From an uncultured Pseudobdellovibrionaceae bacterium (lineage in GTDB: Bacteria > Pseudomonadota > Alphaproteobacteria > Micavibrionales > Micavibrionaceae), in NCBI GenBank assembly GCA_964520985.1, contig CAZFPB010000002.1:150115-214114 (forward strand): DNA of 64,000 nucleotides, in the 5' to 3' direction. A model generated the notes under the pieces. It did not search any database. It was given only the letters and a program-made list of their open reading frames with translations, and had not been told where the DNA came from. Each line of letters starts with the position of its first letter. Positions within the stretch are counted from its first letter, which is position 1. A program made the translations under genes and the position numbers. Shown in pieces: positions 725-19,548 of this stretch.

Positions 725-732
725 TATAAATA
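725..732 (+). promoter_or_regulatory. T4-type late promoter TATAAATA upstream of NAMPT
   Basis: Exact TATAAATA about 58 nt before the ATG at 790, with RBS GGAG at 778-781. Confidence 0.5.
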
Positions 733-789
733 ACTGTATCACGCTGATAGACGGTGTGGTAATTTCACAATAATAGAAAGGAGTTTTCT

Positions 790-2217
790 ATGACCTACGA
801 AAGCATTATTGACAATCCTCTTGTCCACAGTGATTCATACAAATATTCGCAATACCTGCAACTCCCTCCAAACAGTGAAGACAGCAGCACGTATGTTGAG
901 TCTCGTGGCGGTCGATATCCACAAACTGTAGTGTTTGGTAACCAAGCATTGGTCAAAAGTCGGTTTATGAAACCGATTACTCGTCAACATGTGGAAGAAG
1001 CACATGAGCTGCTTACAGAACATGGTGAACCTTTTAATTACGATGGATTCATGAAAATCGTACGCAAGTACGGTGGTTATATGCCGCTTCGAATTGAGGC
1101 GGTTGCAGAAGGATCTGTTGTTCCGACGGGCAATACGTTGCTTCGTGTTCGTCCGACTGACAGTGAGTTCGTGTGGCTTCCTGGTTTCTGGGAAACTGAA
1201 ATTCTACGTGGTACTTGGTATCCAACTACTGTTGCTACGTACAGCTGGCATATCAAAAAAATCATTAAACGGTATTTGGAAAAGACTGGTACACCAGAAC
1301 TGATTGATTTCAAACTGCACGATTTTGGTGCACGTGGAGTAAGTTCACGCGAATCTGCAGGTCTTGGTGGTCTTGCTCACTTGGTTAACTTCAAAGGAAC
1401 TGACACTGTTTCTGCACTTGCATATGGTCGTGCATTTTATAACTGTCGGATGGCTGGATATTCGATTCCTGCTTCTGAACACAGCACGATGACGAGCTGG
1501 GGTGGGCGCGAAGGTGAAGTTGCAGCAATGAATAACATGTTGCAACAATTTACAAAGCCAGGTCAATTGGTAGCATGTGTAAGTGACAGTTATGATATTA
1601 TGAATGCTTGCCTCAATATTTGGGGTGGTGTTCTGAAAGAAAAAGTACTGCAACTGCATGCCATCGGCGGTAAACTGGTTGTTCGTCCAGATAGTGGTGA
1701 TCCTGTTGAGATTACGCTTCAAGTAGTTGAGGCGCTGGCGAGCCGATTTGGTTTTACCACTAACAGCAAAGGATATAAAGTACTGCACCCAGCAGTTGGT
1801 ATTATCCAAGGGGATGGTATTGACGAAGCAATGGTTGAGAAAATTCTTGCAAATTATGAAAAACATGGTTGGTCGGCAGACAACATTACTTTTGGTTCTG
1901 GTGGTAAACTGCTGCAAGCCCACACTCGTGACGACCAAAAATTTGCAATGAAAATGTCGGCGATTAAAGTGGATAACGAATGGCGTGATGTGTTCAAAGA
2001 TCCGATCACTGATCCTGGCAAGAAATCGAAACGTGGTATTCTGACGTTGGAACGGAACATTCATTCTGGTAACTATCGTACGGTAAGTGATAGCCAGGAA
2101 ATCAAAGGTAGCGATGGTTGGTATAACGCAATGCTTCCTATCTATGATACTGGAGAGATGTTTAACGAAGTTGCATTTGACCAAGTACGTGCAAACGCGG
2201 AAGCAGGGGGCATATAA
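790..2217 (+). CDS. nadV: nicotinamide phosphoribosyltransferase (NAMPT)
   Basis: 475 aa. N-terminal HSDSYKYSQY resembles the NAMPT DSYK motif. DFGARGVSS and VRPDSGDP match the conserved NAMPT catalytic region. Good RBS. Confidence 0.85.
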   Translation: MTYESIIDNPLVHSDSYKYSQYLQLPPNSEDSSTYVESRGGRYPQTVVFGNQALVKSRFMKPITRQHVEEAHELLTEHGEPFNYDGFMKIVRKYGGYMPLRIEAVAEGSVVPTGNTLLRVRPTDSEFVWLPGFWETEILRGTWYPTTVATYSWHIKKIIKRYLEKTGTPELIDFKLHDFGARGVSSRESAGLGGLAHLVNFKGTDTVSALAYGRAFYNCRMAGYSIPASEHSTMTSWGGREGEVAAMNNMLQQFTKPGQLVACVSDSYDIMNACLNIWGGVLKEKVLQLHAIGGKLVVRPDSGDPVEITLQVVEALASRFGFTTNSKGYKVLHPAVGIIQGDGIDEAMVEKILANYEKHGWSADNITFGSGGKLLQAHTRDDQKFAMKMSAIKVDNEWRDVFKDPITDPGKKSKRGILTLERNIHSGNYRTVSDSQEIKGSDGWYNAMLPIYDTGEMFNEVAFDQVRANAEAGGI

Positions 2218-2230
2218 GCCCCCTTTTGTT
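2206..2230 (+). terminator. rho-independent terminator after NAMPT
   Basis: GGGGGC-ATATAA-GCCCCC hairpin followed by TTTTGTT; the stop codon lies in the loop. Confidence 0.7.
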
Positions 2231-2250
2231 GTTTATTAGGATAATAAAAA

Positions 2251-3009
2251 ATGGCTACTATTGTTAAATGTCCAAAAGAATTTGAACCACCTATCACTGT
2301 ATTTGTAGCAGGTGGTATTTCCAATACTGCAGATTGGCAAAAGAAATTTACTGATCTATTGTATCTTACGTTATCGGATCGTGTTCATCTTATTAATCCA
2401 CGTCGTGAAAGTTTTGACATTTCAGATCCAACTCAATCCGAGTATCAGATTGACTGGGAACATCGTCATCTAATGCATAGTGATCATGCAATCTTTTGGT
2501 TCTCACATGAAACGCTGTGTCCAATCACGTTGTTTGAATTGGGTAAATGGCTGGCGAGTAGGAAAGATGTTCATATTGGTGTGCATCCAGATTATGCACG
2601 TAGATTGGATGTAATCCATCAAACAGCTCATTTTAATCCTGAGATCAAGATTCATAGTACAATCGAAGATTTGGCTCGATCATTAGTTAATAAGTTGATT
2701 GAACAGTATGGTGAATCGATAACTCCATTCCGTACATATGGCATTATGAGACGGTACTATGAAACACCGCCAGCTAATGTGCCTGATGTGTGGAAAGTAA
2801 CAGTGCAATATCAACATAATAGACAATGGCCTGACACTTCTGCATTGTCACATTCATTGGTACGTTTGGTAGATGTTCTAGTAGATCTCACAACAGGCAA
2901 AGTTATAAAGCAGAGATTTGCTGAAGAAGATGCACCACCTATTAGTTTATTTGACAATTCTCCTTTAATGGATGAAAGGTTTTTAAGTCAACAACGTGAG
3001 CTGTTGTAA
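2251..3009 (+). CDS. nucleoside 2-deoxyribosyltransferase-like protein (SLOG superfamily)
   Basis: VFVAGGISNTADW ... DHAIFWF ... ITLFELGKW resembles the Nuc_deoxyri_tr2-like Rossmann family. Confidence 0.45.
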   Translation: MATIVKCPKEFEPPITVFVAGGISNTADWQKKFTDLLYLTLSDRVHLINPRRESFDISDPTQSEYQIDWEHRHLMHSDHAIFWFSHETLCPITLFELGKWLASRKDVHIGVHPDYARRLDVIHQTAHFNPEIKIHSTIEDLARSLVNKLIEQYGESITPFRTYGIMRRYYETPPANVPDVWKVTVQYQHNRQWPDTSALSHSLVRLVDVLVDLTTGKVIKQRFAEEDAPPISLFDNSPLMDERFLSQQRELL

Positions 3010-3014
3010 TATCT

Positions 3015-3554
3015 GTGTTGCTTAAATGTTATGCAGGAGTGGGATCTCGTTCCACTCCTAAACACATAATCGAACTGTTTGTAGAATTTGCTCATTACGC
3101 TGCTGAAAAACAGTGGACGTTATATTCAGGGGCCGCTGCTGGCGCTGATCAAGCCTTTGAAAAAGGATGCGATCTAGGCAACGGAAGCAAACAAATATTT
3201 TTGCCGTGGCCAAGATTCTGTAATAACCGATCACAACTGATTGAAATTGATCCACGTGCTTTTACTATTGTCCAATCGTTGCATCCTGTGTACAATGATC
3301 TCAGTGTAGGAGCTCGTAAGTTAGTTGCACGTGATGTTCTTCAGGTGTTGGGTTATGATTTATTCACTCCTGTTGACTTCGTATTATGTTATACTGCAGA
3401 TGGTTGCGAATCCGTAGAAGAATACAATAAAGATACGGGCGGAACTGGAATTGCAATATCAGTAGCTTCTAAATTTAGGATTCCTGTGTTTAACGTTGGG
3501 CGTGATATTTCACGAGCTGACGATGCACTTGCTCGTTTAGATATTAAATGGTGA
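3015..3554 (+). CDS. DprA/Smf-like Rossmann-fold protein (SLOG superfamily)
   Basis: AGVGSRSTP ... YSGAAAGADQAFEKG ... IFLPWP matches the DprA-type GSR...SGxAxGxDxxA nucleotide-binding signature. Confidence 0.5.
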   Translation: MLLKCYAGVGSRSTPKHIIELFVEFAHYAAEKQWTLYSGAAAGADQAFEKGCDLGNGSKQIFLPWPRFCNNRSQLIEIDPRAFTIVQSLHPVYNDLSVGARKLVARDVLQVLGYDLFTPVDFVLCYTADGCESVEEYNKDTGGTGIAISVASKFRIPVFNVGRDISRADDALARLDIKW

Positions 3555-3725
3555 TGGTATGGAACAATATAAATTGATTCGTGGTGGATATCAGGATCTT
3601 AGTGAAATTGAAAACACTGTAAACTTTTATATCAGCAAAGGATATAAACCAGTTGGACAACTATTAGTTGTTGAACCAACTGCATCAACACCTTTGTTCT
3701 TTCTTCAACAAATGGAATTGCAATA

Positions 3726-4193
3726 GTGACATTTCAAATAGTAGAACCGATTTTATCTTTTGATGGCCCATATCGTTTCCTGTCTAATTTTTACCCAGCA
3801 CCGATTAAGTGGCGAGGGTTAGAATGGACCACATCAGAGCACGCATATCAAGCATCAAAAACAAGTAATAAACTGCTACAACAGTTTATTTCGACGTTAC
3901 CTACTCCTAATGATGCTAAACAAGTTGGTAAGGCGTTAAGACTGCCATCTAATTGGGATGAAATTAAATTCACTTACATGCGTAGTGTTGTAAAAGCCAA
4001 ATTTACGCAAAATCCTAAATTGTTGGAAGCGTTAATTGAAACGTATCCAGCTCATTTAGAAGAGGGGAATTGGTGGAAGGATACGTGCTGGGGTGTTTGT
4101 CCTGTTGGTTCGGGAAATGGAGAAAACCATCTAGGAAAAATTCTGATGGAATTAAGATTGCATTACTGTACAGAAAATGCATTTGGATATTGA
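3726..4193 (+). CDS. NADAR (YbiA-like, DUF1768) domain protein
   Basis: YRFLSNFYPAPIKWRGLEWTTSEHAYQASK ... NHLGKILMELR closely parallels E. coli YbiA/NADAR motifs. Confidence 0.8.
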   Translation: MTFQIVEPILSFDGPYRFLSNFYPAPIKWRGLEWTTSEHAYQASKTSNKLLQQFISTLPTPNDAKQVGKALRLPSNWDEIKFTYMRSVVKAKFTQNPKLLEALIETYPAHLEEGNWWKDTCWGVCPVGSGNGENHLGKILMELRLHYCTENAFGY

Positions 4194-4200
4194 GGTTAGT

Positions 4201-4908
4201 ATGACCAAGAGTAAAAGATACATTTATTTAAGTGGTGGAATGCAGCACGCTGAGGAGCTGGGTGGTGTTTGGCGCGCTACGTGCAGTGAACGTCTGGACG
4301 AACTCGGATTCATTCCGGTCAATATTACTGCAATGGATATTGCATATAGTAAACAGTATGGAGTAGTTGAACCGTGCTTTGAATATAAAGATAATGAGCG
4401 TCATGTAGAAAAGAAATTGAACATTAGAAATCATTTTGTGTATGCTGATCTTGGTATCATTGAAGATTTCTGTTCAGCTCTTATTGTGTATTATGATGAG
4501 AGCGTACGTAAAGGTGCTGGAACATTATGCGAATGTCAGAAGGCATATGATCATAGAATTCCAGTGTTTCTTGTTAATGGATATGATTCGTTTGACCAAG
4601 TTCCAGGATGGTTGCAGGGGTTAACTACTAAGATGTTTAGTAGTTTTGAGCAGTTGTACCAATATTTGGAGCAGGTAACAGATAATGTAGCAATTCGCAA
4701 AGACATTCGTCAAGACAACATCGATAGCCATTTGTGTTTGGCATGCGGAACTATCGAAAATATTAGCAGCTCAAGATTAGTTGATCCTGAGTTCCTTCCG
4801 GAATATTGCACTAGCTGTAATCAGTTAGATACGCAATTAAACAAGCATACTAAGCAAGATAGATATCGATATTTTTGTAACTATCTGCTTGAATTAAATC
4901 GGCATTAA
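4201..4908 (+). CDS. nucleoside 2-deoxyribosyltransferase-like protein with C-terminal Cys-rich extension
   Basis: Start moved to ATG 4201 (GAGG upstream). YIYLSGGM ... IEDFCSALIVYYDESVRKGAGTLCECQKAYDHRIPVFLV is typical of the PF05014-type fold. C-terminal CLACG...CTSC is a zinc-ribbon-like cluster. Confidence 0.5.
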   Translation: MTKSKRYIYLSGGMQHAEELGGVWRATCSERLDELGFIPVNITAMDIAYSKQYGVVEPCFEYKDNERHVEKKLNIRNHFVYADLGIIEDFCSALIVYYDESVRKGAGTLCECQKAYDHRIPVFLVNGYDSFDQVPGWLQGLTTKMFSSFEQLYQYLEQVTDNVAIRKDIRQDNIDSHLCLACGTIENISSSRLVDPEFLPEYCTSCNQLDTQLNKHTKQDRYRYFCNYLLELNRH

Positions 4909-4924
4909 TAGAGAGGTAACTAAT

Positions 4925-5221
4925 ATGCCATATATCGTTGAAGATAAACGTCGTGTACTACAACAGTCTATTGATTCGTTGGTTAATGATCTGAGACAGC
5001 TGGAGTGTGACGATTCAAATAATTCCATGGCGGGTAATATTAATTATGTATTCACTACTGTATTGGCAAGAGTCTATAGCCCTGTTAACTATGATAACGT
5101 TAACGAAGTCTCTGGAATTCTTAGTTGCGTAGATAAAGAGTTTTATCGTCGCCTTGCAGCACCATACGAAGATCAGAAGTCGTTTGATAACGGTGATGTG
5201 TTTCCGTCTGATATTGGTTAA
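4925..5221 (+). CDS. hypothetical protein
   Basis: 98 aa ORF with RBS GAGAGG; no motif recognised. Confidence 0.4.
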   Translation: MPYIVEDKRRVLQQSIDSLVNDLRQLECDDSNNSMAGNINYVFTTVLARVYSPVNYDNVNEVSGILSCVDKEFYRRLAAPYEDQKSFDNGDVFPSDIG

Positions 5222-5287
5222 TTAGACGCCTTGGATATAATCGCCGTCAAATAATAATAGTAAATACCGGCGATTATATCTTTATAG

Positions 5288-5473
5288 GTGATTATTATGT
5301 TAAACGAATCAGATACATTATACGTTGTTCAAGTTAACGGCGTTAATATGGGACAACCTCAACCATCGTACAGATTAGCTGAAGCTACAATTGTACACCT
5401 TCCTCAAGATATGCAACGCGAAGCTCGCGTAGTTCCTATTTCAAGAACAGGCCAGCAATTGCTATTAGGTTAA
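5288..5473 (+). CDS. hypothetical small protein
   Basis: 61 aa ORF; no motif recognised. Confidence 0.35.
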   Translation: MIIMLNESDTLYVVQVNGVNMGQPQPSYRLAEATIVHLPQDMQREARVVPISRTGQQLLLG

Positions 5474-5486
5474 AAAGTTAGACGTA

Positions 5487-5678
5487 TTGCCCCCTTTTGT
5501 AGTAAATATAACGAATGTGCAAAGAGGGGAAAGTATGAACACGGATACACATGAAAGTTTATTGGAACTGATAGATCAGATCATTGAAGTTTTATCTGAT
5601 TATGAGGACAGATACATAGTTCCATTAGAACTTGCTGTTCAGTTGCGTGAAGTTGTTCAAATTATTCCAGAAGAATAA
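5487..5678 (+). CDS. hypothetical small acidic protein
   Basis: 63 aa ORF with RBS AGAGGGGAAAG upstream. Confidence 0.4.
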   Translation: MPPFVVNITNVQRGESMNTDTHESLLELIDQIIEVLSDYEDRYIVPLELAVQLREVVQIIPEE

Positions 5679-5720
5679 CGAATTAAAACTAAATAATAGA
5701 CTATTTCAAGGATTTTGTGT

Positions 5721-5886
5721 TGTGAAGTTGTCGCATGTTCTTTGTGAAAGCAAAGACAAGAGCCCCAAGAAGAAACGTAAGCGTTATTCTGATAATAATC
5801 ACCCGTTTCATTGGGAGACGCCTCAACAAGCACAAAAGAATTTGATTCAATATCTATGGTTTATGTCTAACGCAGATGCTACTTGA
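5721..5886 (+). CDS. possible small Lys/Arg-rich protein (GTG start)
   Basis: Fills the 5679-5882 gap. KKKRKR basic patch. Ends with an ATGA overlap into the next gene. Weak call. Confidence 0.25.
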
Positions 5887-5894
5887 GATTAATT

Positions 5895-6149
5895 ATGCCA
5901 GCTAAAAGTAAAGCTCAAACTAATTTTTTTAGAATGGTTCGCGCCTATCAAGATGGATCGTTAGATACATCTAAAATGACGGACCAACAAGTTAGTCGTC
6001 TCAGAAAGACAGCTAATTCGATATCAAAAACAGATGCATCTGTTTTTGCGAAAACTAAGGATAAGAAACTTCCAAAGCGTGTAGTTAATGAACAGATAAC
6101 TTTTTCTGATTTTTTATTTGTGGATAGTCTTACGGAAACACAACAATGA
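5895..6149 (+). CDS. hypothetical small basic protein
   Basis: ATG at 5895 preferred over the TTG at 5883; no motif recognised. Confidence 0.4.
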   Translation: MPAKSKAQTNFFRMVRAYQDGSLDTSKMTDQQVSRLRKTANSISKTDASVFAKTKDKKLPKRVVNEQITFSDFLFVDSLTETQQ

Positions 6150-7264: not shown

Positions 7265-8353
7265 ATGAAAACCTACCTTGTTGGCGGCGCTGTCCGAGAC
7301 ATGCTCATGGGTTTAGAACCCAAAGACCAAGATTATGTTGTAGTAGGTGCAACTCCATCCCAAATGATCGAACTTGGTTATCATAAGGTTGGTTCTTCGT
7401 TCCCTGTTTTTCTGAAAAACAACTGCGAATATGCTCTTGCTCGAACTGAACGTAAGACGGGTGTTGGGTATAATGGGTTTGATGTAGATTACAATCCAAA
7501 CGTAACACTGGAACAAGATCTGCTGCGTCGTGATTTGACGATCAATAGTATTGCCCAAGATCCAGAAACTGGCGAATTGGTTGATCCGTATGGTGGGCTA
7601 CGGGACATCAAAAACAAAATGTTGCGTCACACAAGTGAAGCATTTGCAGAAGATCCAATTCGTGTTCTTCGAGTTGCTCGATTTGCAGCTCGCTATCCTG
7701 ATTTTTCTGTTGATCCACAAACATTAGATTTGATGGCTACGATTCTACCGGAGTTGCAATATGTTCCATATGAACGAATTTGGACGGAATTGGATAAAGG
7801 AATGCAAGAAAAGGCTCCATATCGCATGTTTGAAATATTGAACAATGTAGGTGCTTTTTCGAAACGCAAATCTGTGCTGTGGCCATATGGGGAAGCTACT
7901 ACATGGACGCCTCAACAATGGATTAATATGCAAGAAGCTGATGACCAATTAGCTGCATATGCATGTATTCTTAAAGGATTTGTTGAGAGTGCAGAACGCA
8001 ATTCGTTGTTCCAACAATATTGTGTTCCTGTCCATTATTACAAACCTGCGACTGCGTTGTGGAATAACCACACGCAGATTATGAAGTATTTGGAATTGAC
8101 GATTGATCAAAAACTGACGTTGTTCAATAACATACGTGCATTTACTGATGCAAGCACGTTGAAATGGGCAATCGGAATGTTAGCAAATTTGGATCAATCA
8201 TTCGATTATGTTGGTGTTTGGACGTACGTAACACGTGATCTCAATGCGTTGAGTCAGCTTGACCTTGAAACTGTGGCTACTAAGGCAACCGGTAACAAAG
8301 CGGTTGCTATATATCAAGCACGGTATCAATGTTTAGCGCAACTATATGAGTGA
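7265..8353 (+). CDS. cca: tRNA nucleotidyltransferase (CCA-adding enzyme)
   Basis: YLVGGAVRDMLMG head-domain motif and RRDLTINSIA (RRD motif) of class II CCA-adding enzymes / poly(A) polymerase family; 362 aa; RBS GGAGA. Confidence 0.85.
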   Translation: MKTYLVGGAVRDMLMGLEPKDQDYVVVGATPSQMIELGYHKVGSSFPVFLKNNCEYALARTERKTGVGYNGFDVDYNPNVTLEQDLLRRDLTINSIAQDPETGELVDPYGGLRDIKNKMLRHTSEAFAEDPIRVLRVARFAARYPDFSVDPQTLDLMATILPELQYVPYERIWTELDKGMQEKAPYRMFEILNNVGAFSKRKSVLWPYGEATTWTPQQWINMQEADDQLAAYACILKGFVESAERNSLFQQYCVPVHYYKPATALWNNHTQIMKYLELTIDQKLTLFNNIRAFTDASTLKWAIGMLANLDQSFDYVGVWTYVTRDLNALSQLDLETVATKATGNKAVAIYQARYQCLAQLYE

Positions 8354-10356: not shown

Positions 10357-11286
10357 ATGATTTTGATAAACGCTTCTCCGTACATTCCGCCACTTCCTCC
10401 AGGTCCTAATGGTGATGATTTTGAATCGGTTCATGTGTTCGGCGCCACAATGTTAGTTGGTGTTGGAATGCGAACTAGTGGTTTAAACATGATAGTTGCC
10501 GGAACAATAGGTGGGCAACGTAATTTGCTGTTTTCATCAGATGGTGGTGAGACCTGGAGTATTAATGCATTACCTCTTCCAACTGACGGAGTTAACCGTC
10601 AGCCATCAGCATTGGGGTTATCTGGAACGCGTACTTATATAGGACGAATTTCAACCACGGGAAATAACACCACTGGTAATGCTAACCTACAGTATGCATC
10701 TAACTACAATTCAATTTTTTCAAACGTTACGTACACGATGACGGGTGGAATTATTAGCATTGGGATGTCTGGAACGACAGCTGTGTTTTTGTCAGGGGCA
10801 GGACTGGTTAATGGTACAACTGATTTTAGTAGTTTTACAGGAACAAGTAACCTTTCACCTATTAGCCCAACCTCTATTATGTATGGAAACGGCATTTATT
10901 TAATGCTTGGAAGTAATGGTGTTTGTACTCTTAATGGTACAGCTGCGACTGGTTGGAATACGACTTCAATATCTGGATTAGATTTGACTGTTGCAGAATA
11001 TGCTGATGGAACGTGGTTGGGTGGCGGACTCAGTGGAAAGTTAGCGGTATCTACTACTGGTACTTCTTGGACTACAAAATCGTCACCATTGCCAGATAAC
11101 ATAAACAGTATTGCTTATGGAAATGGGGCGTGGGGTGTAATGACAAGTAACCAAATTGCATTCTCTGTAGATCTTAATTCGTGGCAGGTGTTTGATGTTA
11201 AAGGGTCTTCTGCTTATGGATTATGTTACAGTAATAATAGATTTATGTACGTGGCTAGCAATCAGCTATACGCGTTAAATTGGTAA
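10357..11286 (+). CDS. BNR/Asp-box repeat protein (paralog 1)
   Basis: SSDGGETWS matches the Asp-box SxDxGxTW exactly. Further degenerate copies STTGTSWTT and NLNSWQ. N-terminus MILINASPYIPP is shared with the downstream paralog. Confidence 0.55.
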   Translation: MILINASPYIPPLPPGPNGDDFESVHVFGATMLVGVGMRTSGLNMIVAGTIGGQRNLLFSSDGGETWSINALPLPTDGVNRQPSALGLSGTRTYIGRISTTGNNTTGNANLQYASNYNSIFSNVTYTMTGGIISIGMSGTTAVFLSGAGLVNGTTDFSSFTGTSNLSPISPTSIMYGNGIYLMLGSNGVCTLNGTAATGWNTTSISGLDLTVAEYADGTWLGGGLSGKLAVSTTGTSWTTKSSPLPDNINSIAYGNGAWGVMTSNQIAFSVDLNSWQVFDVKGSSAYGLCYSNNRFMYVASNQLYALNW

Positions 11287-11304: not shown

Positions 11305-12240
11305 ATGATTTTAATTAATGCTACTCCGTATATTCCACCGGGTCCTCAGTTGCCAGATGCTGCTGACTTTGCTTCTCTTTTTGTGTTCCCTATCACTATG
11401 ACGTTACAGAATAATGGGTTATATCATGAACCTGGATCTAATACGTTATCAATCGGCGGCGCCAATTCTGGTCAAGGATCATTTAGTGTATCAACGGACG
11501 CTGGTGCCAGTTGGACAACGTATGGATTACCTGTTCCATCTGGTGGAAGCGCATCTAACGGTGCTACTGCGGTATTAACGAATGGTGCACAAGGGTATGT
11601 TAGTCGTAGTACAGGATCGAGCAGTGATGCTTCTAGAATTCAAACCTCCGCTAATTATACATCAACGTGGACTAACGTATCAACAAGCAATAACCTTGGA
11701 TCTGGTATCCGTTTCGCTGAAAACAGTGCTAACCAAATTGCATTGTTAACAAATAGTGGTCGAGTTAATAGTACAACGTCAAGAACGACGTGGTCGTCGA
11801 ATACTTCAGTTACTGCTATTGCTCCAAATAACTTGGTTGCTGGTAATGGAATATTTTTAGTGGTTGGTTCGGCTGGGGTTTCAACTTCTTCAAATGGTAC
11901 TAGTTGGACAAATACTACAATTGCGAGTTTAAATTTACTTACAGCTCGTTTTGATAATGGAATGTGGGTCGGTGGAGGAACTAATGGTAAGTTGATGACA
12001 AGTGCTACTGGTACTAGTTGGACAAACCAAACAACTCCATTGACCGATGATGTAGTAGGGATTGCATATGGAAATGGTGTTTGGGCTGCTTTGACGTCAA
12101 CGAAAATAGCGTTTTCGTTTGATGGAATTACATGGGTAGCACAAGATCCTCCAACGACTTCAGGTAATCATTCATTAGCGTATGTCAATGGCACATTCGT
12201 ATATATTAATGATAAAACTGTTTACTATTTAACATATTAA
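11305..12240 (+). CDS. BNR/Asp-box repeat protein (paralog 2)
   Basis: STDAGASWTT, SSNGTSWTN and SATGTSWTN are Asp-box-like repeats. Collinear with 10357-11286. Confidence 0.55.
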   Translation: MILINATPYIPPGPQLPDAADFASLFVFPITMTLQNNGLYHEPGSNTLSIGGANSGQGSFSVSTDAGASWTTYGLPVPSGGSASNGATAVLTNGAQGYVSRSTGSSSDASRIQTSANYTSTWTNVSTSNNLGSGIRFAENSANQIALLTNSGRVNSTTSRTTWSSNTSVTAIAPNNLVAGNGIFLVVGSAGVSTSSNGTSWTNTTIASLNLLTARFDNGMWVGGGTNGKLMTSATGTSWTNQTTPLTDDVVGIAYGNGVWAALTSTKIAFSFDGITWVAQDPPTTSGNHSLAYVNGTFVYINDKTVYYLTY

Positions 12241-13541: not shown

Positions 13542-13617
13542 GGGGCTAGGGACTGCAGGGGGTGGTCGTCTCACTTGCAATGAGAAAATCAGCGGGGTTC
13601 GATTCCCCGTAGCTCCA
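13542..13617 (+). tRNA. tRNA-Ala(TGC)-like
   Basis: Acceptor GGGGCTA/TAGCTCC with G3:U70 (Ala identity). Anticodon arm TCTCA-CTTGCAA-TGAGA. T-arm CGGGG-TTCGATT-CCCCG. D-loop atypical and variable region 7 nt, so moderate confidence. Confidence 0.5.
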
Positions 13618-13668
13618 CAAGTTAACCTTTAATGACGATAGTTGGTTATTAAAGGATAATGCATGTAT

Positions 13669-13757
13669 AGTAGAGTGGTGTAATGGTTGCACGCTAGGCT
13701 TATAACCTAGAAGCCCCAGATTAGGGCGTGGTGACGGGTTCGATTCCCTCCTCTACT
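13669..13757 (+). tRNA. tRNA-like element, degenerate (anticodon-arm-like CTAGG-CTTATAA-CCTAG, long extra arm)
   Basis: Acceptor-like AGTAGAG/CTCTACT, D-arm GTG-TAATGGTT-CAC, extra hairpin GCCC-CAGATTA-GGGC. The T-stem has only 3 clean bp. Possible pseudo-tRNA. Confidence 0.25.
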
Positions 13758-13767
13758 ACAGAACAAT

Positions 13768-13852
13768 AGTATTGTGGCCGAATGGGTAGGCAACAGCCTG
13801 ATAAGCTGTGTCAGTAATGACGAAGCTGGTTCGAGTCCAGTCAATACTACCA
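13768..13852 (+). tRNA. tRNA with Ile anticodon GAT and a long (type-II-like) variable arm; encoded CCA
   Basis: Acceptor AGTATTG/CAATACT + A + CCA. D GCC-GAATGGGTA-GGC. Anticodon arm ACAGC-CTGATAA-GCTGT. A 15-nt variable arm with hairpin GTCA-GTAA-TGAC. T GCTGG-TTCGAGT-CCAGT. 85 nt. Confidence 0.5.
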
Positions 13853-13865
13853 ATTAGATGGTAGA

Positions 13866-14192
13866 TTGTATATGTATGCACTACAGTACGCTGATTTTCG
13901 ACCCCGCCCATATAATGTGCGGGACATTATAGAAATAGTTATTGATTGGCCAGTGAAAGGATTTGGTTGGATAAGTGGCCAGTTAGATACCACATTAATG
14001 GAATTTTCTAGTGTTAGAGAGTTGTTTAACAAAATTGAAGATTTACCAGATCAATTTTGTTTTAACAGTGAACATTGTAGCGGATTTGTTCAAGGAAATA
14101 ATGTTACAATGCGATTAGGATTAAGCGCCAAAATATCTACGTCGAACGCATCATGGAAGGTAATGTTTGATGAAGTGTCACGACAAAAGTGA
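13866..14192 (+). CDS. hypothetical protein
   Basis: 108 aa ORF between tRNAs. Confidence 0.4.
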   Translation: MYMYALQYADFRPRPYNVRDIIEIVIDWPVKGFGWISGQLDTTLMEFSSVRELFNKIEDLPDQFCFNSEHCSGFVQGNNVTMRLGLSAKISTSNASWKVMFDEVSRQK

Positions 14193-14370
14193 TGAAGAAG
14201 TGATTGAGTTATCTCGTAGCTTGCAGTATGGTTGTCAACAGCAACGAGAGATGATAGCAGAAGCGAAGAGACGTGGAATATTTGATGGTGAACAACATTT
14301 GAGATTGAGTCCAATTGGACAGTTGCTTGAACATAATCCAAATATTGTTAATCGTAGAGTGTAGTTAAAT

Positions 14371-14445
14371 GGGGTGCTGGCGTAATGGCAGCGCACGAGA
14401 CTTTTAATCTCGCAGGTCTGGGTTCGAGTCCCAGGCGCCCCACCA
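14371..14445 (+). tRNA. tRNA-Lys(TTT), CCA encoded
   Basis: Acceptor GGGGTGC/GCGCCCC, D GCG-TAATGGCA-GCGC, anticodon arm CGAGA-CTTTTAA-TCTCG, T CTGGG-TTCGAGT-CCCAG, ACCA 3' end. Confidence 0.85.
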
Positions 14446-14462
14446 AATAGCTTGAGGTATGT

Positions 14463-14768
14463 ATGTTTATAGATATCCGTAAAGCTAATAAGATTGTTGT
14501 TACACAACATGCAAAGCAGCGTGCTTATCAACGTGCTAAGTTGTTTATGTTTCAACATGAATTAGCAAATATACATATCTTTTTGCAGAATGATTTTTTA
14601 TCGTCTTCTGTAGATATGAAATTTGTAGTGGTGCCGTTCTACAAGAACAAGTTGGAAACTAAGTACGGTAAAGGAAGTTTTATTAGCCATTCCAAGTTGT
14701 TTAAGTACATGGCAATGTGTGACAATGATAGGATAGTTATCCGTTCAGTTGCATACATAGGAAATTAG
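14463..14768 (+). CDS. hypothetical protein
   Basis: 101 aa ORF with RBS GAGG. Confidence 0.4.
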   Translation: MFIDIRKANKIVVTQHAKQRAYQRAKLFMFQHELANIHIFLQNDFLSSSVDMKFVVVPFYKNKLETKYGKGSFISHSKLFKYMAMCDNDRIVIRSVAYIGN

Positions 14769-14775
14769 TTACAAT

Positions 14776-14852
14776 GCTCGATTGAAGCCGAATGGGAAGG
14801 CACGATCCTTACAAGGTCGGACGCGGTGGTTCGATTCCACCATCGAGCACCA
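14776..14852 (+). tRNA. tRNA-Val(TAC), CCA encoded
   Basis: Acceptor GCTCGAT/ATCGAGC, anticodon arm CGATC-CTTACAA-GGTCG, T GGTGG-TTCGATT-CCACC, ACCA. Confidence 0.85.
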
Positions 14853-14869
14853 AGTTTTGAGATGGTTTC

Positions 14870-15133
14870 ATGACCCTTGATGAATTATTAGATACAGAAA
14901 TACGTGGTGGTAGATACTGGTTTAAGAATTCAGGGAATGGAACAGTTCGCAAGTTTTTAACCTTGCGATCGTTGCTAGACCGAAATGGAACGTACAACAT
15001 ACAATTTGATTGTACTAAGTATACGGGCACTGTTATTTGTAACGATGCTGAAAATGGTCTAGTTGTTGTACAAATGCTTCATAATGAACATATGAGGTAT
15101 GGGTTCAAGTGGCCATTTAATAAAGCTCAGTAA
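14870..15133 (+). CDS. hypothetical protein
   Basis: 87 aa; its stop codon lies inside the 5' end of the next tRNA. Confidence 0.4.
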   Translation: MTLDELLDTEIRGGRYWFKNSGNGTVRKFLTLRSLLDRNGTYNIQFDCTKYTGTVICNDAENGLVVVQMLHNEHMRYGFKWPFNKAQ

Positions 15134-15199
15134 ACTTTGACGGTGAAGCCTTGCCTTGTAAGCAAGCGGAAGACAGTTCGAATCTGTCACTGAGCTCCA
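15125..15199 (+). tRNA. tRNA-Thr(TGT), CCA encoded
   Basis: Acceptor GCTCAGT/ACTGAGC, anticodon arm CTTGC-CTTGTAA-GCAAG, T GACAG-TTCGAAT-CTGTC, TCCA end. Confidence 0.85.
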
Positions 15200-15215
15200 A
15201 ACAAGAGTTGATTGT

Positions 15216-15419
15216 ATGAAAAATATAAATGATGGTGAGTGGTATCCATGTGCATGTATGGGACCGACAGGTGATGATCCTTACTGTCGTTGTGAGATGA
15301 GACGCAGAGGATTAACTCCAACACCACTGTGGACACCTGAAGCAAGAGAAGAATTGAAAAAAGCACTTCAACGAGTGATGGAAATAGAAGATGAAATGTT
15401 AAATCAGTCAAAGGACTGA
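15216..15419 (+). CDS. hypothetical small Cys-containing protein
   Basis: 67 aa with CACMGPTGDDPYCRCE. Confidence 0.4.
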   Translation: MKNINDGEWYPCACMGPTGDDPYCRCEMRRRGLTPTPLWTPEAREELKKALQRVMEIEDEMLNQSKD

Positions 15420-15428
15420 TTTAACAAT

Positions 15429-15499
15429 AGGTCTGTCGTCTAATGGCAAGACACACCCCTGATTAGGGTGGAACTCAGGTTCGAGTCCTGACTGACCTA
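15429..15499 (+). tRNA. tRNA-Ile(GAT)-like variant (U at position 37, one acceptor mismatch)
   Basis: Anticodon arm CACCC-CTGATTA-GGGTG is nearly identical to the canonical Ile tRNA at 18021, except a T at position 37. D GTCT-AATGGCA-AGAC; T TCAGG-TTCGAGT-CCTGA. Confidence 0.5.
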
Positions 15500-15504
15500 C
15501 GAAG

Positions 15505-15580
15505 GTGAGACCATCGTTCAACGGAGAGGATACCGGTCGCGGAGATCGGAGATCTAGGTTCGAATCCTAGTGGAATTACC
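15505..15580 (+). other. tRNA-like fragment with a canonical T-arm and tandem GGAGATC GGAGATC, no acceptor pairing found
   Basis: CTAGG-TTCGAAT-CCTAG T-arm at 15554-15570; no complementary 5' acceptor partner within about 80 nt upstream. Confidence 0.25.
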
Positions 15581-15634
15581 TGTGGATAAATAAACAATTG
15601 TTGTGCTCTCCATAAATACTCTATTTGGAGTATT

Positions 15635-16192
15635 TTGAAGTTGTGGAAGTGCAAACATTGTAATATTGAGTTTAATTTTGATACCAAATCTGAAAAAGCA
15701 AACCATACCAGATGGTGTCATTTAAATCCAAAAAGAAGTCAATTTATAGAAGAGAATAAGCAAAGAGCTGTCGAACGCAACATTCAACGATTTGGGTTGT
15801 TTGTTGATATTGACGTTGAATGTTCTACTTGTGAATGTACATTCACAATAACAGAGCGATCCAAACTCTTTGACAGTAATAAAAAGTATTATTGTAGTAA
15901 AACGTGTTCTAATAGTGTTGGTGGTGCAGCAAACGCAGCTAGATTAGAAGCGAATGGTGAATTTAAAAGTTACACAGTAATATGTTTTAAACATCATAAA
16001 AGATGTTGTATACTGTGTGGCTTTGATAAAATAGTTGAAGTGCATCATTATGATTATAACCATCATAATAATGTACCTGAGAATTTAGTTCCTTTATGTC
16101 CAAATCATCATCAAATGGTGCATTCGAAATATAGGAGCGAGATAATTTCTGACGTCGATGCATATGTTAAGAAATTTAAAGATGGGCTGTAG
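15635..16192 (+). CDS. HNH endonuclease with N-terminal zinc-finger-like region
   Basis: C-terminal CILCGF...VEVHHYD...NLVPLCPNHHQMVH is an HNH motif. N-terminal CKHCN...HTRWCH. Embedded in the tRNA island. Confidence 0.65.
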   Translation: MKLWKCKHCNIEFNFDTKSEKANHTRWCHLNPKRSQFIEENKQRAVERNIQRFGLFVDIDVECSTCECTFTITERSKLFDSNKKYYCSKTCSNSVGGAANAARLEANGEFKSYTVICFKHHKRCCILCGFDKIVEVHHYDYNHHNNVPENLVPLCPNHHQMVHSKYRSEIISDVDAYVKKFKDGL

Positions 16193-16255
16193 GTGTTGAT
16201 GGGGGCACGCGAGCTTTGCACGCTTGAGGGAACGGTTCGATTCCGTTACGGTCCA
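16184..16255 (+). tRNA. tRNA-Ala(TGC)
   Basis: Acceptor GGGCTGT/ACGGTCC with G3:U70. D GTGT-TGATGGGG-GCAC. Anticodon arm CGAGC-TTTGCAC-GCTTG. T AACGG-TTCGATT-CCGTT. Overlaps the HNH stop codon. Confidence 0.65.
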
Positions 16256-16272
16256 CAAATAGAGGATTAAAC

Positions 16273-16509
16273 ATGCTTGTACGTGTGAAAGACCTTAAAA
16301 AGTTTGACGGTTATGTGTTTGGTGCTGATTGCTTCTTAAAGAATTGGCCTGAAATTAAAACAACTGGTATTGAAGTAAAACTGATTGGTGAGTTTTACTA
16401 TGTAATGGTAGATGGAAAACAAGCAGGTCTTTCTGCTTTTTTCAGTGAAGAAGAAATGCAATACCTCGAACAGGTTCCTCCTGATGTGTCGAGTCTAGTA
16501 AAGGATTAA
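16273..16509 (+). CDS. hypothetical small protein
   Basis: 78 aa with RBS GAGGA. Confidence 0.4.
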   Translation: MLVRVKDLKKFDGYVFGADCFLKNWPEIKTTGIEVKLIGEFYYVMVDGKQAGLSAFFSEEEMQYLEQVPPDVSSLVKD

Positions 16510-16511
16510 GT

Positions 16512-16835
16512 GTGAAGATATTGTTTGTGTGCAGACAGGGAAGAATGAGAAGTAGGACAGCTGCCCATGTCTTTAAAAGCTACACAGTTGACACGCAGTA
16601 TTGTGGTACAGATAGTGACAGTCATGTTCCATGTACACAGGATATGATTGATAAATGTGACATAATTGTGTGTATGGAAGATCAAAATTATTGGGAGATA
16701 GTTCAAAATTTTGATCTGAATGGAAGACCAATTAAGACGCTAGGTCTTCCAGACGAATATGATTACATGGATGATGGATTGATTCAGTTGTTAAAGATCG
16801 CTCTATCAAAGAATGGAATTTTAAATTTTTTGTAG
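16512..16835 (+). CDS. hypothetical protein
   Basis: 107 aa, Cys-rich. Confidence 0.4.
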   Translation: MKILFVCRQGRMRSRTAAHVFKSYTVDTQYCGTDSDSHVPCTQDMIDKCDIIVCMEDQNYWEIVQNFDLNGRPIKTLGLPDEYDYMDDGLIQLLKIALSKNGILNFL

Positions 16836-16839
16836 TAAT

Positions 16840-16912
16840 TATTAGTTGGTGTAGTGGGAGCACAATGACCCGCAGAGGGTTAGAGGGAATGGTTCGAATC
16901 CATTACTAATAG
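16840..16912 (+). tRNA. tRNA, anticodon unresolved (non-canonical anticodon loop)
   Basis: Acceptor TATTAGT/ACTAATA, D GTGT-AGTGGGA-GCAC, T AATGG-TTCGAAT-CCATT. Best anticodon stem is TGACC/GGTTA with loop CGCAGAG, which lacks U33. Confidence 0.45.
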
Positions 16913-16998
16913 CGTAAGCGACGTTGCTTAGTAGAATCTGTAATCCTCTCTTTGGACGGGACCAGGCGGGGGCGATCGCAAAGGTTTGGAGTTGTGTT

Positions 16999-17226
16999 AT
17001 GAAAATGTGGTATGTTCTTGTTGAAATGAAAAATTCTACAAGACCGTTGATTGATACTGTTGTGACTGATGATACTGTTGAACAATCACAATTAGAAGAG
17101 TACGTGAATGCGATGTACGCAAAATATAACATGGCTTCGCATTTTTTAAGTGTGAAAAGCGTGCATGATATTGGACCTTGCTATACAATTATGGGTACAG
17201 AAGTTACATTTATGGATGAAAATTAA
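16999..17226 (+). CDS. hypothetical small protein
   Basis: Start moved to ATG 16999 to clear the upstream tRNA. Confidence 0.35.
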   Translation: MKMWYVLVEMKNSTRPLIDTVVTDDTVEQSQLEEYVNAMYAKYNMASHFLSVKSVHDIGPCYTIMGTEVTFMDEN

Positions 17227-17234
17227 GAAATAAT

Positions 17235-17324
17235 TCCGCTCGGGCTGGCTAGGTGAAGGCTTTCGGCTGTTAACCGAATGACTCCTTAAATGGAGGCGAG
17301 GTTCGAATCCTCGGGGCGGAGCCA
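17235..17324 (+). tRNA. tRNA with Asn anticodon GTT and a long (type-II-like) variable arm; CCA encoded
   Basis: Acceptor TCCGCTC/GGGCGGA + G + CCA. Anticodon arm TTCGG-CTGTTAA-CCGAA. An 18-nt variable arm with hairpin CTCC-TTAAAT-GGAG. T CGAGG-TTCGAAT-CCTCG. 90 nt. Confidence 0.5.
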
Positions 17325-17343
17325 AATTAAAGAGAATAGAAGT

Positions 17344-17775
17344 ATGAGAGGTGATAGAACAAAACAGAAGGGAACGCTGGGTGAGCTTTGTGTTATGTTT
17401 GAAGCAGCGAAACGTGGATATAATGTTCTAGTGCCTTGTGGTGATTATTCTCAATACGATTTAGTGGTAGAACGTAACGGAAAGTTTGAACGAGTTCAGG
17501 TTAAATCTGTAACTCCAAAAGATGGAAAGTTGTGTGTTCATACTAAAAGTATGACTTTTGACAAAGAACAAAGTACAAATAATCGAAGTAAACAAGTAAA
17601 ATATTCTGCAGGTGATTTTGATTGGTTAGCTGCGTATGATTTAGAAAATGATGAAGTATATTTCATTCCGGCAAATTTAGTAGTTAATCGAACAAGTTTT
17701 GCATTGCGTTTATCTGATACAAAGAATGGTCAAATAGCAAATGTTCGATTTGCTAAAGACTTTCAAAATTGGTAA
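17344..17775 (+). CDS. PD-(D/E)XK-like nuclease family protein (putative)
   Basis: Start moved to ATG 17344 to clear the tRNA. GDYSQYDLVVERNGKFERVQVKS has a D...(D/E)xK arrangement typical of restriction-endonuclease-fold nucleases. Confidence 0.4.
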   Translation: MRGDRTKQKGTLGELCVMFEAAKRGYNVLVPCGDYSQYDLVVERNGKFERVQVKSVTPKDGKLCVHTKSMTFDKEQSTNNRSKQVKYSAGDFDWLAAYDLENDEVYFIPANLVVNRTSFALRLSDTKNGQIANVRFAKDFQNW

Positions 17776-17785
17776 ACATTAGTAT

Positions 17786-17927
17786 TGGCATGTAGCTCAG
17801 CGGTAGAGCTGGTGACTGTTTTGGTTGTAATTCAACCATTATCGTTTCTATGAGACGATAAGAATTGATGTATAAACATCACAGATTAATCACCCGGTCG
17901 TAGGTTCGATCCCTACCATGCCAGCCA
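17786..17927 (+). tRNA. interrupted tRNA gene: intact 5' and 3' halves separated by a 76-nt three-hairpin insert in the anticodon loop; CCA encoded
   Basis: 5' half is TGGCATG-TA-GCTC-AGCGGTA-GAGC-T-GGTGA. 3' half is TCACC-CGGTC-GTAGG-TTCGATC-CCTAC-CATGCCA-G-CCA. Acceptor pairs 7/7. Anticodon stem GGTGA/TCACC encloses an insert with hairpins TGGTTG/CAACCA, TTATCGT/ACGATAA and GATGT/ACATC. Confidence 0.55.
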
Positions 17928-18020
17928 TTGTGAATATTGGGCTCTTGACCCAATGTGGTAAGGTTGCTGAGATGGGGCAACTAGTGTCTAGCGAATTGGA
18001 AGGGGGCGAAGACACAAACT

Positions 18021-18092
18021 AGCGGATTAGCTCAGTGGTAGAGCACACCCCTGATAAGGGTGGGGCCATGGGATCGTAACCCATATCCGCTA
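18021..18092 (+). tRNA. tRNA-Ile(GAT)
   Basis: Acceptor AGCGGAT/ATCCGCT, D GCTC-AGTGGTA-GAGC, anticodon arm CACCC-CTGATAA-GGGTG, T ATGGG-ATCGTAA-CCCAT (A at position 54). Confidence 0.8.
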
Positions 18093-18094
18093 CA

Positions 18095-18198
18095 GAATCG
18101 TAAGTGGGCAGGACTAGGGTTCGATTCCCTTTAGGTATGGTACTGAACATGAGGCGCTGAAAGCCTCAGCCTTCAAGGTTCGATTTCTTGACGATTCT
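18095..18198 (+). ncRNA. elongated tRNA-like RNA (104 nt): terminal acceptor stem, two T-arm-like hairpins and an anticodon-arm-like hairpin
   Basis: Ends GAATCGT/ACGATTC pair 7/7. 3' proximal T-arm CAAGG-TTCGATT-TCTTG. Internal AGGG-TTCGATT-CCCT. Hairpin TGAGGC-GCTGAAA-GCCTCA. Confidence 0.4.
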
Positions 18199-18221
18199 TC
18201 AACTAACGTAGAATAAAAAAT

Positions 18222-18530
18222 ATGAATCGTCTGCAATGGTTATTATCCAAATTAGCTGAAGAAGCTAGTGAAGTCAGTCAAATCTCCCTTAAAACATCTC
18301 AATTTGGTCCGGATGAAGTCATGCCTGGCCAGCCGTTAACAAACTTTCAACGTACTCATGGTGAGTTGAATGATTTGTTGGCTATTGTTGAAGTGCTTAA
18401 TGATGAGTATAATTTTGATTTTAAATGTGATCTAAATTCATTAGATCGCAACGCTATTGAATTAAAGAAACAGAAGCTTGAAAAATACTATCGTTATTCT
18501 GTGAGCTTAGGATTGGTTAAAGATGAGTGA
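18222..18530 (+). CDS. hypothetical protein
   Basis: 102 aa ORF. Confidence 0.4.
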   Translation: MNRLQWLLSKLAEEASEVSQISLKTSQFGPDEVMPGQPLTNFQRTHGELNDLLAIVEVLNDEYNFDFKCDLNSLDRNAIELKKQKLEKYYRYSVSLGLVKDE

Positions 18531-19080
18531 CATCATTAAACTGTATGGTAAAGATATTGATATTTCCAATCTGAAACTGTCTGATATCACAAATGCATTT
18601 GTTGATAATATTTGGACAGAACAAGAATTAGAAAAAATGTGTCAAACTCATCGTAGCCAACAAAATACTTTTGTATATTTTGAAAGTGATGAATTATATC
18701 ATGCAATGTTCGAAATATTGGAAACGATGAACGTTGATATTCAGCATATTAAAAATAAGCTAATTGCTAAACTAGCGCCTCATATCTATCTTAACGATTG
18801 CGATTATTCGATACAAGATGTAACGGTGCCTGCATATTCGGATGGTGAATCGTGTTTAACAGCTACAATTGTAAGATATGTTGTAAAAGTGGATACGGTA
18901 AATGACGTGCGGGGCCAAATTAAATCGAAGCTCAAACAAGCTATTAAACGACGTGACCAAAAACAACGCGAAATAAAAGAAGACCTTGAAACATTGAATC
19001 GTCTGCAGCAAAAATATGGCGCTCAACTTGATACCCTTTTACAAAAGGAACAGTCAGATGAAGGCTATCCGTATTCATAA
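18523..19080 (+). CDS. hypothetical protein
   Basis: 185 aa; ATGA overlap with the upstream ORF. Confidence 0.45.
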   Translation: MSDIIKLYGKDIDISNLKLSDITNAFVDNIWTEQELEKMCQTHRSQQNTFVYFESDELYHAMFEILETMNVDIQHIKNKLIAKLAPHIYLNDCDYSIQDVTVPAYSDGESCLTATIVRYVVKVDTVNDVRGQIKSKLKQAIKRRDQKQREIKEDLETLNRLQQKYGAQLDTLLQKEQSDEGYPYS

Positions 19081-19085
19081 TATAA

Positions 19086-19161
19086 GCACAGTCGTATCGG
19101 GTGGTCCGAGACAACGAAGGCCAAGTTGGATAAATTGGTTCGATTCCAATACTGTGCGCCA
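19086..19161 (+). tRNA. tRNA, anticodon unresolved; CCA encoded
   Basis: Acceptor GCACAGT/ACTGTGC + G + CCA and T ATTGG-TTCGATT-CCAAT are canonical. The D/anticodon region GTATCGGGTGGTCCGAGACAACGAAGGCCAAG does not give a canonical 7-nt U33 anticodon loop. Confidence 0.5.
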
Positions 19162-19541: not shown

Positions 19542-19548
19542 GGACGCA

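Follow-up and report, generated by a model that had tools for sequence, protein, structure and literature searches.

ORF4177 and DUF6899, a virus-specific gene pair in a NAMPT- and NADAR-bearing island of jumbo phages

Do a nicotinamide phosphoribosyltransferase (NAMPT) gene, a NADAR gene and the Rossmannoid genes packed around them in a phage genome serve one pathway of NAD and ADP-ribose metabolism, or are they separate units lying side by side? We addressed this question in a stretch of 64,000 nucleotides of contig CAZFPB010000002.1 (positions 150,115 to 214,114), hereafter the window, which carries these genes in a block of eight co-directional, tightly packed open reading frames (ORFs). 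The source genome is a novel jumbo phage of about 330 kb; the proteins of the block are also present on a 330,120-bp NCBI contig, and a megablast search of GenBank phages with the block as query gave no match. The initial annotation had described the block as NAMPT, three SLOG proteins and NADAR; all of its ORFs were recovered, together with two members that it had missed, the DUF6899 gene (4925-5221) and a 55-aa ORF (3559-3726). In the reading that we favor, and to which we give about an even chance, the block is an accessory island conserved within one jumbo-phage clade and composed of separately evolving units, not one pathway. NAMPT and NADAR are here ordinary members of published classes. 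What is new is a virus-specific gene pair, made of ORF4177, which has a predicted nucleoside-2-deoxyribosyltransferase (NDT) fold, and DUF6899, a family with thousands of members in phages that are habitually found beside NDT-superfamily or MazZ-type enzymes. The argument is built on folds, family memberships and gene linkages, and from these we infer all substrates and activities.

The ORF4177-DUF6899 gene pair and the other Rossmannoid proteins

ORF4177 (4177-4908, plus strand, with an alternative start at 4201 that agrees with its homologues) had no Pfam match, and comparison of its family profile with the PDB by sequence gave nothing significant. Structure prediction, from which its fold is taken, yielded an NDT-like model with a conserved catalytic-type glutamate after a glycine-rich loop, as in the NDT superfamily, and the structures matching it in BFVD were those of phage NDTs and DUF4406 proteins. 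The invariant elements of the family are YLSGGMQ, D83 and GAGT.SE111, followed by an 80-residue tail that is helical and zinc-ribbon-like, with a partly degenerate CxxG...C pattern. The family is essentially virus specific: 185,579 cellular genomes contained only six distant relatives, all of them tail-less, all in Ignavibacteria/Bacteroidota metagenome-assembled genomes and none with DUF6899 nearby.

The DUF6899 gene of the window (4925-5221, plus strand; PF21840, E value 3.5e-23, 82.4 bits against 27) follows ORF4177, and the same order was found in every related viral locus examined, DUF6899 lying directly 3' of the ORF4177 homologue in 21 of 21 loci (about 15 of them nonredundant) from NCBI, ENA and IMG/VR contigs. 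The surroundings of these loci were otherwise unrelated. In Ralstonia phage RsoM2USA, homologues of NAMPT, ORF2251 and ORF4177 are scattered, and the ORF4177 homologue still directly precedes that of DUF6899; outside the clade that carries the island, the neighbors of the pair include thymidylate synthase, DHFR, IMPDH/GMP reductase, gp32, topoisomerase, Ro60 and Acb1. We conclude that ORF4177 and DUF6899 constitute an undescribed obligate gene pair, strictly conserved, with a virus-specific enzyme.

DUF6899 itself is a large viral family, with 5,710 cluster representatives at an E value of ≤1e-3, nearly all of them stand-alone proteins of about 90 to 100 aa starting with MPYI. It is a family without assigned function, and the literature searched made no mention of it. 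The AlphaFold2 model shows a small protein of four helices at moderate confidence (predicted local distance difference test score of 71) and gave no fold match; a MazG-like identity was not supported.

We therefore turned to the neighbors of DUF6899, using 79 DUF6899-anchored viral loci and a Pfam scan of the 127 ORFs immediately up- and downstream in the 69 nonidentical ones. A strict ORF4177-type gene lay upstream in only about 6 of the 79 loci. The NDT superfamily dominated (DUF4406, 10; Nuc_deoxyrib_tr, 10; Nuc_deoxyri_tr2, 7; DUF1937, 2), followed by N domains of MazZ-type dATP/dGTP diphosphohydrolases (dGTP_diPhyd_N, 7) and then by replication genes, in counts that overlap where related families match one protein and that come from phylogenetically nonindependent loci. 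The same procedure applied to the neighbors of the SLOG gene (129 ORFs) placed no NDT or MazZ family among the top 25, thus indicating that this enrichment is specific to DUF6899. In BFVD, some of the phage proteins aligning to the NDT fold of ORF4177 bear the annotation of a dATP/dGTP diphosphohydrolase domain, which suggests that the two activities are fused in some phage proteins.

Taken together, the associations of DUF6899 probably point to deoxynucleotide-pool chemistry. The pair would be a two-gene unit in which an NDT-fold N-glycosidase or transglycosylase is joined by a small four-helix partner, and it may cleave or exchange bases in (deoxy)nucleosides or nucleotides, thereby editing the pool for phage DNA synthesis. 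An outcome of ordinary deoxynucleotide enzymes had been named at the outset as one that would overturn a role in NAD metabolism; the pair and its NDT and MazZ neighbors point toward that outcome, with some probability left for a NAD or ADP-ribose substrate. Through the pair, a large part of phage "dark matter," probably one concerned with deoxynucleotide-pool editing, becomes open to concrete tests.

Two of the Rossmannoid proteins had been called NDT-like and one DprA-like, calls that our results bear out, with ORF4177 and ORF2251 (2251-3009, plus strand) as the NDT-like ones and ORF3015 (3015-3554, plus strand) as the DprA-like one. The further claim that all three are SLOG proteins applies to ORF3015, which is SLOG-like, and not to the other two, which belong to the NDT superfamily and, judged by fold, glycine-rich motifs (GxGxR and SGG..G.D) and SLOG-clan matches, fall outside the SLOG superfamily. 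Nor do the three form one family, since pairwise hhalign probabilities among their family profiles were below 3%. The block thus contains two different NDT-superfamily enzymes and one stand-alone, DprA-like protein that is SLOG-like. The proposal that a SLOG trio sequesters or cleaves NAD-derived signals is not sustained, two of the three being predicted NDT-fold N-glycosidases or transferases.

ORF2251, to which we refer as NDT2, contains an N-terminal PF15891 (Nuc_deoxyri_tr2) domain at residues ~16 to 150 (8e-17, 61.9 bits against a cutoff of 30, the match itself falling in residues ~16 to 115), and its family profile matches the solved putative NDT 4mcj in the PDB at 3.7e-19. The motifs FLAGGIS..DWQ, NPRR and ITLFELG are invariant, including the glutamate of FELG. 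The protein also carries a unique C-terminal extension of about 100 aa, for which no homologue was found in the PDB or the databases searched. Since single-sequence IMG/VR scans with ORF4177 and ORF2251 found no relatives, family alignments were needed for both. NDT2 would carry out chemistry related to that of ORF4177, and it tends to adjoin NAMPT. The nearest relative of ORF2251 is a tandem NDT2-domain duplication of 304 aa on a 334-kb contig (L104, GCA_031385045.1, 7001-7915; L numbers denote loci), adjoining a SurE nucleotidase, RadC and a HerA-like ATPase.

ORF3015 matches phrog_768 (2e-46), a "DprA-like" family, and carries the SLOG motifs GIGSR.TP, SGAA.GAD and TGGTG. Its family gave weak matches to DNA_processg_A in 44 of 67 members and to LDcluster4 in 13 of 67; the protein itself matched DNA_processg_A below cutoff (1.4e-4, 21.6 bits against 29.6), with DprA as its best PDB match (E value 0.23). 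It is not DprA proper, with 14.8 bits against 191 for TIGR00732 and a length of 179 aa without extra domains. Its motifs and weak profile matches point to a widespread stand-alone phage protein of probable SLOG type, which probably binds single-stranded DNA (ssDNA) or a nucleotide. In three loci from other clades (L117, L149 and L142), NDT2 lies ~1.8 kb from the SLOG gene among ThyX-like, oligoribonuclease (Orn)-like, MazG-like and PTH2-like genes; Thy1 was also present in the SLOG-neighbor scan. The 55-aa ORF that follows (3559-3726, plus strand) is among the genes called on the source contig and shows weak similarity to DUF1737 (Pfam E value 0.029). It is not conserved in relatives; tblastn of the related loci gave no match.

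NAMPT, NADAR and the transcription of the block

The NAMPT assignment at 790-2217 (plus strand; Nampt/NadV type) was borne out by scores well above cutoff. The protein is full length and has both domains (NAPRTase PF04095, 1e-57, 196 bits against a cutoff of 20.8; NAMPT_N PF18127, 2e-19, 70 against 25), scores 577 bits in NCBIfam PRK09198 (cutoff, 405) and matches phrog_448 at 1.7e-147. Sequence identity is 52% with jumbo-phage NAMPTs and 45% with the NAMPT of a 253-kb Vibrio phage. By family, NAMPT would convert nicotinamide and phosphoribosyl pyrophosphate into nicotinamide mononucleotide (NMN), the reaction with which NARP2-type reconstitution of NAD+ begins after attack by NADase defenses.

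The second step requires an NMN adenylyltransferase (NMNAT), and the initial annotation was right in seeing none. We searched 83 kb (the window with an upstream flank of 9.2 kb and a downstream flank of 10 kb), taking ORFs of at least 85 aa in the window and called genes in the flanks, and found no cytidylyltransferase or NMNAT domain. No Prs-like gene was found in this DNA or adjoining NAMPT, which separates the block from NARP1. The proposed search for an NMNAT or an ADP-ribose pyrophosphate synthetase partner thus came back empty over the stretch covered. NMN would then be adenylylated to NAD+ by an NMNAT encoded outside the 83 kb or by the host.

A stand-alone Nudix hydrolase, already noticed in the window, was confirmed at 59442-59876 (plus strand; Pfam NUDIX, 3.6e-14; called as a 144-aa gene), 54 kb from the block, and is possibly related to NAD or ADP-ribose. 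Phage RsoM2USA carries a homologue with 46% identity (L002, 5062-5421) about 600 nt 5' of its NAMPT, which suggests a Nudix-NAMPT link that has been broken up in the genome of the window. An amidinotransferase/DDAH-like gene (41575-42396) is also kept near NAMPT in RsoM2USA, as well as near the ORF4177-DUF6899 pair in locus L020.

The transcription signals bear on whether NAMPT belongs with the genes that follow it. The block had been described as late-promoter driven, and the octamer TATAAATA is indeed present at 725-732; this occurrence carries no statistical weight, because the 64 kb contain 3 copies against 5.2 expected, and we therefore rejected a T4-type late promoter. Sigma-70-like sites in the window were likewise at background (27 observed, 26.4 expected). 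A hairpin overlaps the stop codon of NAMPT (2205-2224, plus strand), between NAMPT and ORF2251, with a 7-bp GC-rich stem followed by the U-tract UUUUGUUGUUU and a predicted RNA fold of -16.5 kcal/mol (z, -2.3). Its form is terminator-like, and if it does terminate transcription, NAMPT may be separate from the downstream genes; it probably forms a transcription unit by itself.

The NADAR gene (3726-4193, plus strand) was likewise identified correctly, with PF08719 above its gathering score (1.4e-23, 84.3 bits against 35.1) and TIGR02464 at 79.6 bits against 73.7. The 155-aa protein consists of the YbiA core only (PDB YbiA 2b3w, 1.6e-19; 8bau, 2.5e-3) and keeps the active-site motifs FLSNF, SEHAYQA.K, EEGN and D..WG, of which SEHAY..K, EEGN and D..WG are invariant. 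It lacks the N-terminal extension of the DarT1-associated NADAR, DarG1, and the block contains no ADP-ribosyltransferase gene. Phage NADARs have been described as orphan anti-DarT1 antitoxins, named AdfN (PMC11825919), and ADP-ribosylated guanine was hydrolyzed in vitro by all NADAR subtypes tried, namely, the DarT1-linked and sigma70-linked types, Escherichia coli YbiA and phage gp30.3, as well as by myxobacterial YbiA (PMC11125620). The NADAR of the window would thus be a YbiA-core ADP-ribosyl N-glycohydrolase and most likely an AdfN-like orphan antitoxin, taking ADP-ribose off guanine in phage DNA. Among the NAD-salvage and ADP-ribose roles first proposed for the block, those of NAMPT and NADAR find support in the demonstrated phage roles of their families (NARP2 and AdfN, respectively); that of a signal-binding SLOG trio does not find such support.

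The island in related phages and the competing explanations

Is the island more than a set of neighbors inherited together? The whole arrangement, from NAMPT through NADAR, SLOG, ORF4177 and DUF6899, recurs only in about nine related, diverged jumbo-phage contigs of ~28 kb to 379 kb, with 37 to 54% protein identity to the window. NADAR, SLOG, ORF4177 and DUF6899 occur together in L010, L013, L015, L024, L108/110 and L198/199 and, without SLOG, in L004; L109 has NADAR, SLOG and DUF6899, and L173 has NAMPT, NADAR and SLOG. NAMPT mostly lies 3 to 7 kb upstream, with varying inserts. This recurrence exceeds chance. The flanking genes, including a CCA-adding enzyme that accompanies the island in most relatives, are equally syntenic, so that much of the clustering can be put down to common descent. 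We then scanned the 80 loci closest to the SLOG gene and the 80 closest to NADAR. NADAR was present in only 8 of the 80 SLOG-anchored loci, and SLOG in only 5 and the ORF4177-DUF6899 pair in 7 of the 80 NADAR-anchored loci, all belonging to one clade; with the SLOG-neighbor scan, this led us to reject a coupling of NADAR with SLOG, or of SLOG with NDT, as a general rule among phages.

Some relatives carry additional genes of nucleotide metabolism. In L024 (IMGVR_UViG_3300032342_001249, 1170-5517), NAMPT, PnuC (1e-50), a NadR-like NMNAT/kinase and NAD kinase stand in a row, and this phage thus has both a Nampt and the two NARP3 genes. In L010 (IMGVR_UViG_3300019487_000026, 4868-6031), the DNA between NAMPT and NADAR includes an adenylosuccinate-synthetase-like gene of the PurA/PurZ type (1.3e-44), which may be the sign of a diaminopurine genome.

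Several observations weigh against an island of independent units. Within the clade, the pair is consistently embedded among NAD genes, with NAMPT in the window, L010, L024, L108-110 and L164/198, with PnuC, NadR and NadK beside it in L024, and with NadK in L107, where this gene adjoins NADAR. Gene order varies, SLOG lying 5' of NADAR in the window and 3' of it elsewhere, and an adjacency that outlasts such changes could reflect a real functional coupling to NAD or ADP-ribose. Three diverged contigs, represented by the window, L105/106 and L267, have NDT2 beside NAMPT, with the order of the two flipped. On the side of the single units, DUF6899 showed no recognizable fold or motif match by AlphaFold2 model and fold search, the neighbor counts carry the overlap and nonindependence given above, and YbiA and T4 gp30.3, expressed alone, gave cells no protection from DarT1 (PMC11125620).

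One rival explanation, a refined form of the initial proposal that we consider unlikely, is an integrated NAD+/ADP-ribose pathway in which NAMPT, NADAR, both NDT-fold enzymes, SLOG and DUF6899 cooperate. Its members would either recycle the products of NADases or ADP-ribosyltransferases, for example by feeding ribose-5-phosphate or nicotinamide from ADP-ribose (ADPR), NMN or ADP-ribosylated nucleotides to NAMPT, or destroy TIR- or SLOG-type ADPR-derived signals. Co-directional and tightly packed genes, an island kept in about nine diverged contigs with PnuC, NadR and NadK interleaved, the threefold NDT2-NAMPT adjacency and the NAD-centered counter-systems with NADAR and Nudix proposed in jumbo phages (Iyer et al. 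2021, PMC7824862) all fit such a pathway. However, the components are unlinked outside one clade, the usual neighbors of DUF6899 are NDT, MazZ-type and replication genes rather than NAD genes, and the equal synteny of the CCA-adding enzyme and other genes means that the clustering may reflect descent only; in addition, a terminator-like hairpin lies 3' of NAMPT, and the block has no NMNAT.

Another version, in which the ORF4177-DUF6899 pair was recruited into the NAD island as a two-component N-glycosidase or transglycosylase acting on NAD-derived or ADP-ribosylated nucleotides, strikes us as quite improbable. If it were true, the pair would either turn ADP-ribose- or NMN-type molecules into substrates of NAMPT or break down immune signals derived from ADPR, and phages would possess a further route of NAD reconstitution or signal destruction beyond NARP1-3. 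The island defines a jumbo-phage clade in which to ask whether NDT-DUF6899 chemistry was co-opted for NAD/ADP-ribose counter-defense, at a time when both the reconstitution of NAD+ by phages and the removal of ADP-ribose from DNA are under active study.

We give even less credence to an island of orphan antitoxins, in which NADAR would mimic DarG1 against DarTG1, SLOG would mimic ShosA or PsyrA against defenses with phosphoribosyltransferase (PRTase) toxins, and the NDT units would counter related nucleotide-targeting toxins. Phage orphan NADAR antitoxins are established (PMC11825919), ShosA is a DprA-like ssDNA-binding antitoxin (PMC12961424), and ORF3015 gave weak PADLOC matches to PsyrA (9e-4) and ShosA (1.5e-3). 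These matches, however, cover only ~45 residues of the common SLOG motif, ORF3015 has no SAM domain, which ShosA requires for stability (PMC12961424), and no defense theme appeared among the neighbors of the SLOG gene.

The weakest explanation, which we regard as highly improbable, is that an NDT-fold enzyme installs 7-deazaguanine at the nucleoside or nucleotide level from the preQ0-pathway products of QueD and QueE, given that QueE-like (58489-59382, 2.9e-53) and QueD-like (63264-63830, 2e-30) genes are present in the window, that no TGT/DpdA-type gene was detected in the 83 kb and that "undetected 2'-deoxyribosyltransferases" for 7-deazaguanine DNA have been raised by Hutinet et al. 2019 (PMC6884629), but that the Que genes lie 54 to 58 kb from the block, QueC and FolE were not seen in the window or flanks, a DpdA may lie in the ~250 kb beyond, ORF 50289-51140 of the window has no assigned family, and no QueD or QueE homologue was found near any NDT/DUF6899 pair in ~270 loci, whereby a neighborhood link to 7-deazaguanine genes was rejected. 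From the similarity of its QueE- and QueD-like genes, the phage may make a 7-deazaguanine or pterin derivative.

Other features of the window and comparison with known systems

Beyond the block, the window carries 15 tRNA genes clustered at 13542-23809 (Ala, Ile [four], Lys, Val, Thr [four], Pro, Leu, Asn and others); among them lie small ORFs and the gene of a PD-(D/E)XK endonuclease. An RNA/tRNA-repair set, encoded at 7265-8353, 28956-29507, 30678-31070, 33111-34166, 34795-36312 and 43161-44348, consists of the CCA-adding enzyme, HAD_SAK_2, PTH2, two RNA ligases and a Ro60-like TROVE+vWA protein. A dCTP-deaminase-like gene is also present, and the sole PRTase of the window is a small 162-aa Pribosyltran protein (54642-55130). 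At least 14 paralogous proteins of ~200 aa have leucine-rich-repeat-like cores and a common C-terminal motif (...CQEELIDAGY..AKL), without a match in the Pfam scan (48-674, 24894-26092, 36654-39227 on the minus strand, 47584-49498 and 59890-62440). Two tandem paralogues of ~310 aa (10357-11286 and 11305-12240), starting with MILINA.PYIPP, rich in Ser/Thr/Gly repeats and without a family match, may be structural or fiber proteins. A minus-strand gene at 39231-40493 encodes a class II aldolase domain preceded by ~210 N-terminal residues that match phrog_35624.

How does the island compare with systems already described? NARP2 is the phage Nampt-plus-Nmnat route of NAD+ reconstitution, and 94% of Nampt phages carry Nmnat (bioRxiv 10.1101/2024.02.11.579819). 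The NAMPT of the window is full length and of the same family as that of Vibrio phage KVP40 (NadV/NatV), whereas no Nmnat accompanies it in the block or the 83 kb and an NDT2 gene follows it. NARP3 consists of PnuC and NadR (PMC13464706), a likeness seen in relative L024, where NAMPT stands alongside both. As in AdfN, the NADAR of the window is a stand-alone phage domain with its active-site motifs kept and without an N-terminal extension; it differs in being nearest to the YbiA core by sequence, not to T4 gp30.3 (Phage_30_3, E value 0.014), and in keeping a conserved Glu where T4-type AdfN has His.

In base-modified phages with diaminopurine (2-aminoadenine, dZ), a phage NDT acts on deoxynucleosides and depletes dA (bioRxiv 10.1101/2025.10.22.683976). 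The neighbors of DUF6899 resemble this pathway in including MazZ-type diphosphohydrolases and NDTs, whereas PurZ, DatZ and MazZ were not found in the window and an adenylosuccinate-synthetase-like gene accompanies the island in L010 alone. The survey of Iyer et al. 2021 describes the same cast of NAMPT, NADAR, Nudix and SLOG in jumbo phages with RNA-repair genes nearby; it reads DprA/Smf as a recombination ssDNA binder and contains neither the term "deoxyribosyltransferase" nor the NDT-DUF6899 pair (PMC7824862). Within the NDT superfamily (NDT, DNPH1/Rcl, MilB, DUF4406 and PF15891), no characterized NDT has an obligatory DUF6899 partner gene. ORF2251 is set apart by its unique C-terminal extension, and ORF4177, undetected by Pfam, by its zinc-ribbon-like tail and by the DUF6899 gene that follows it.

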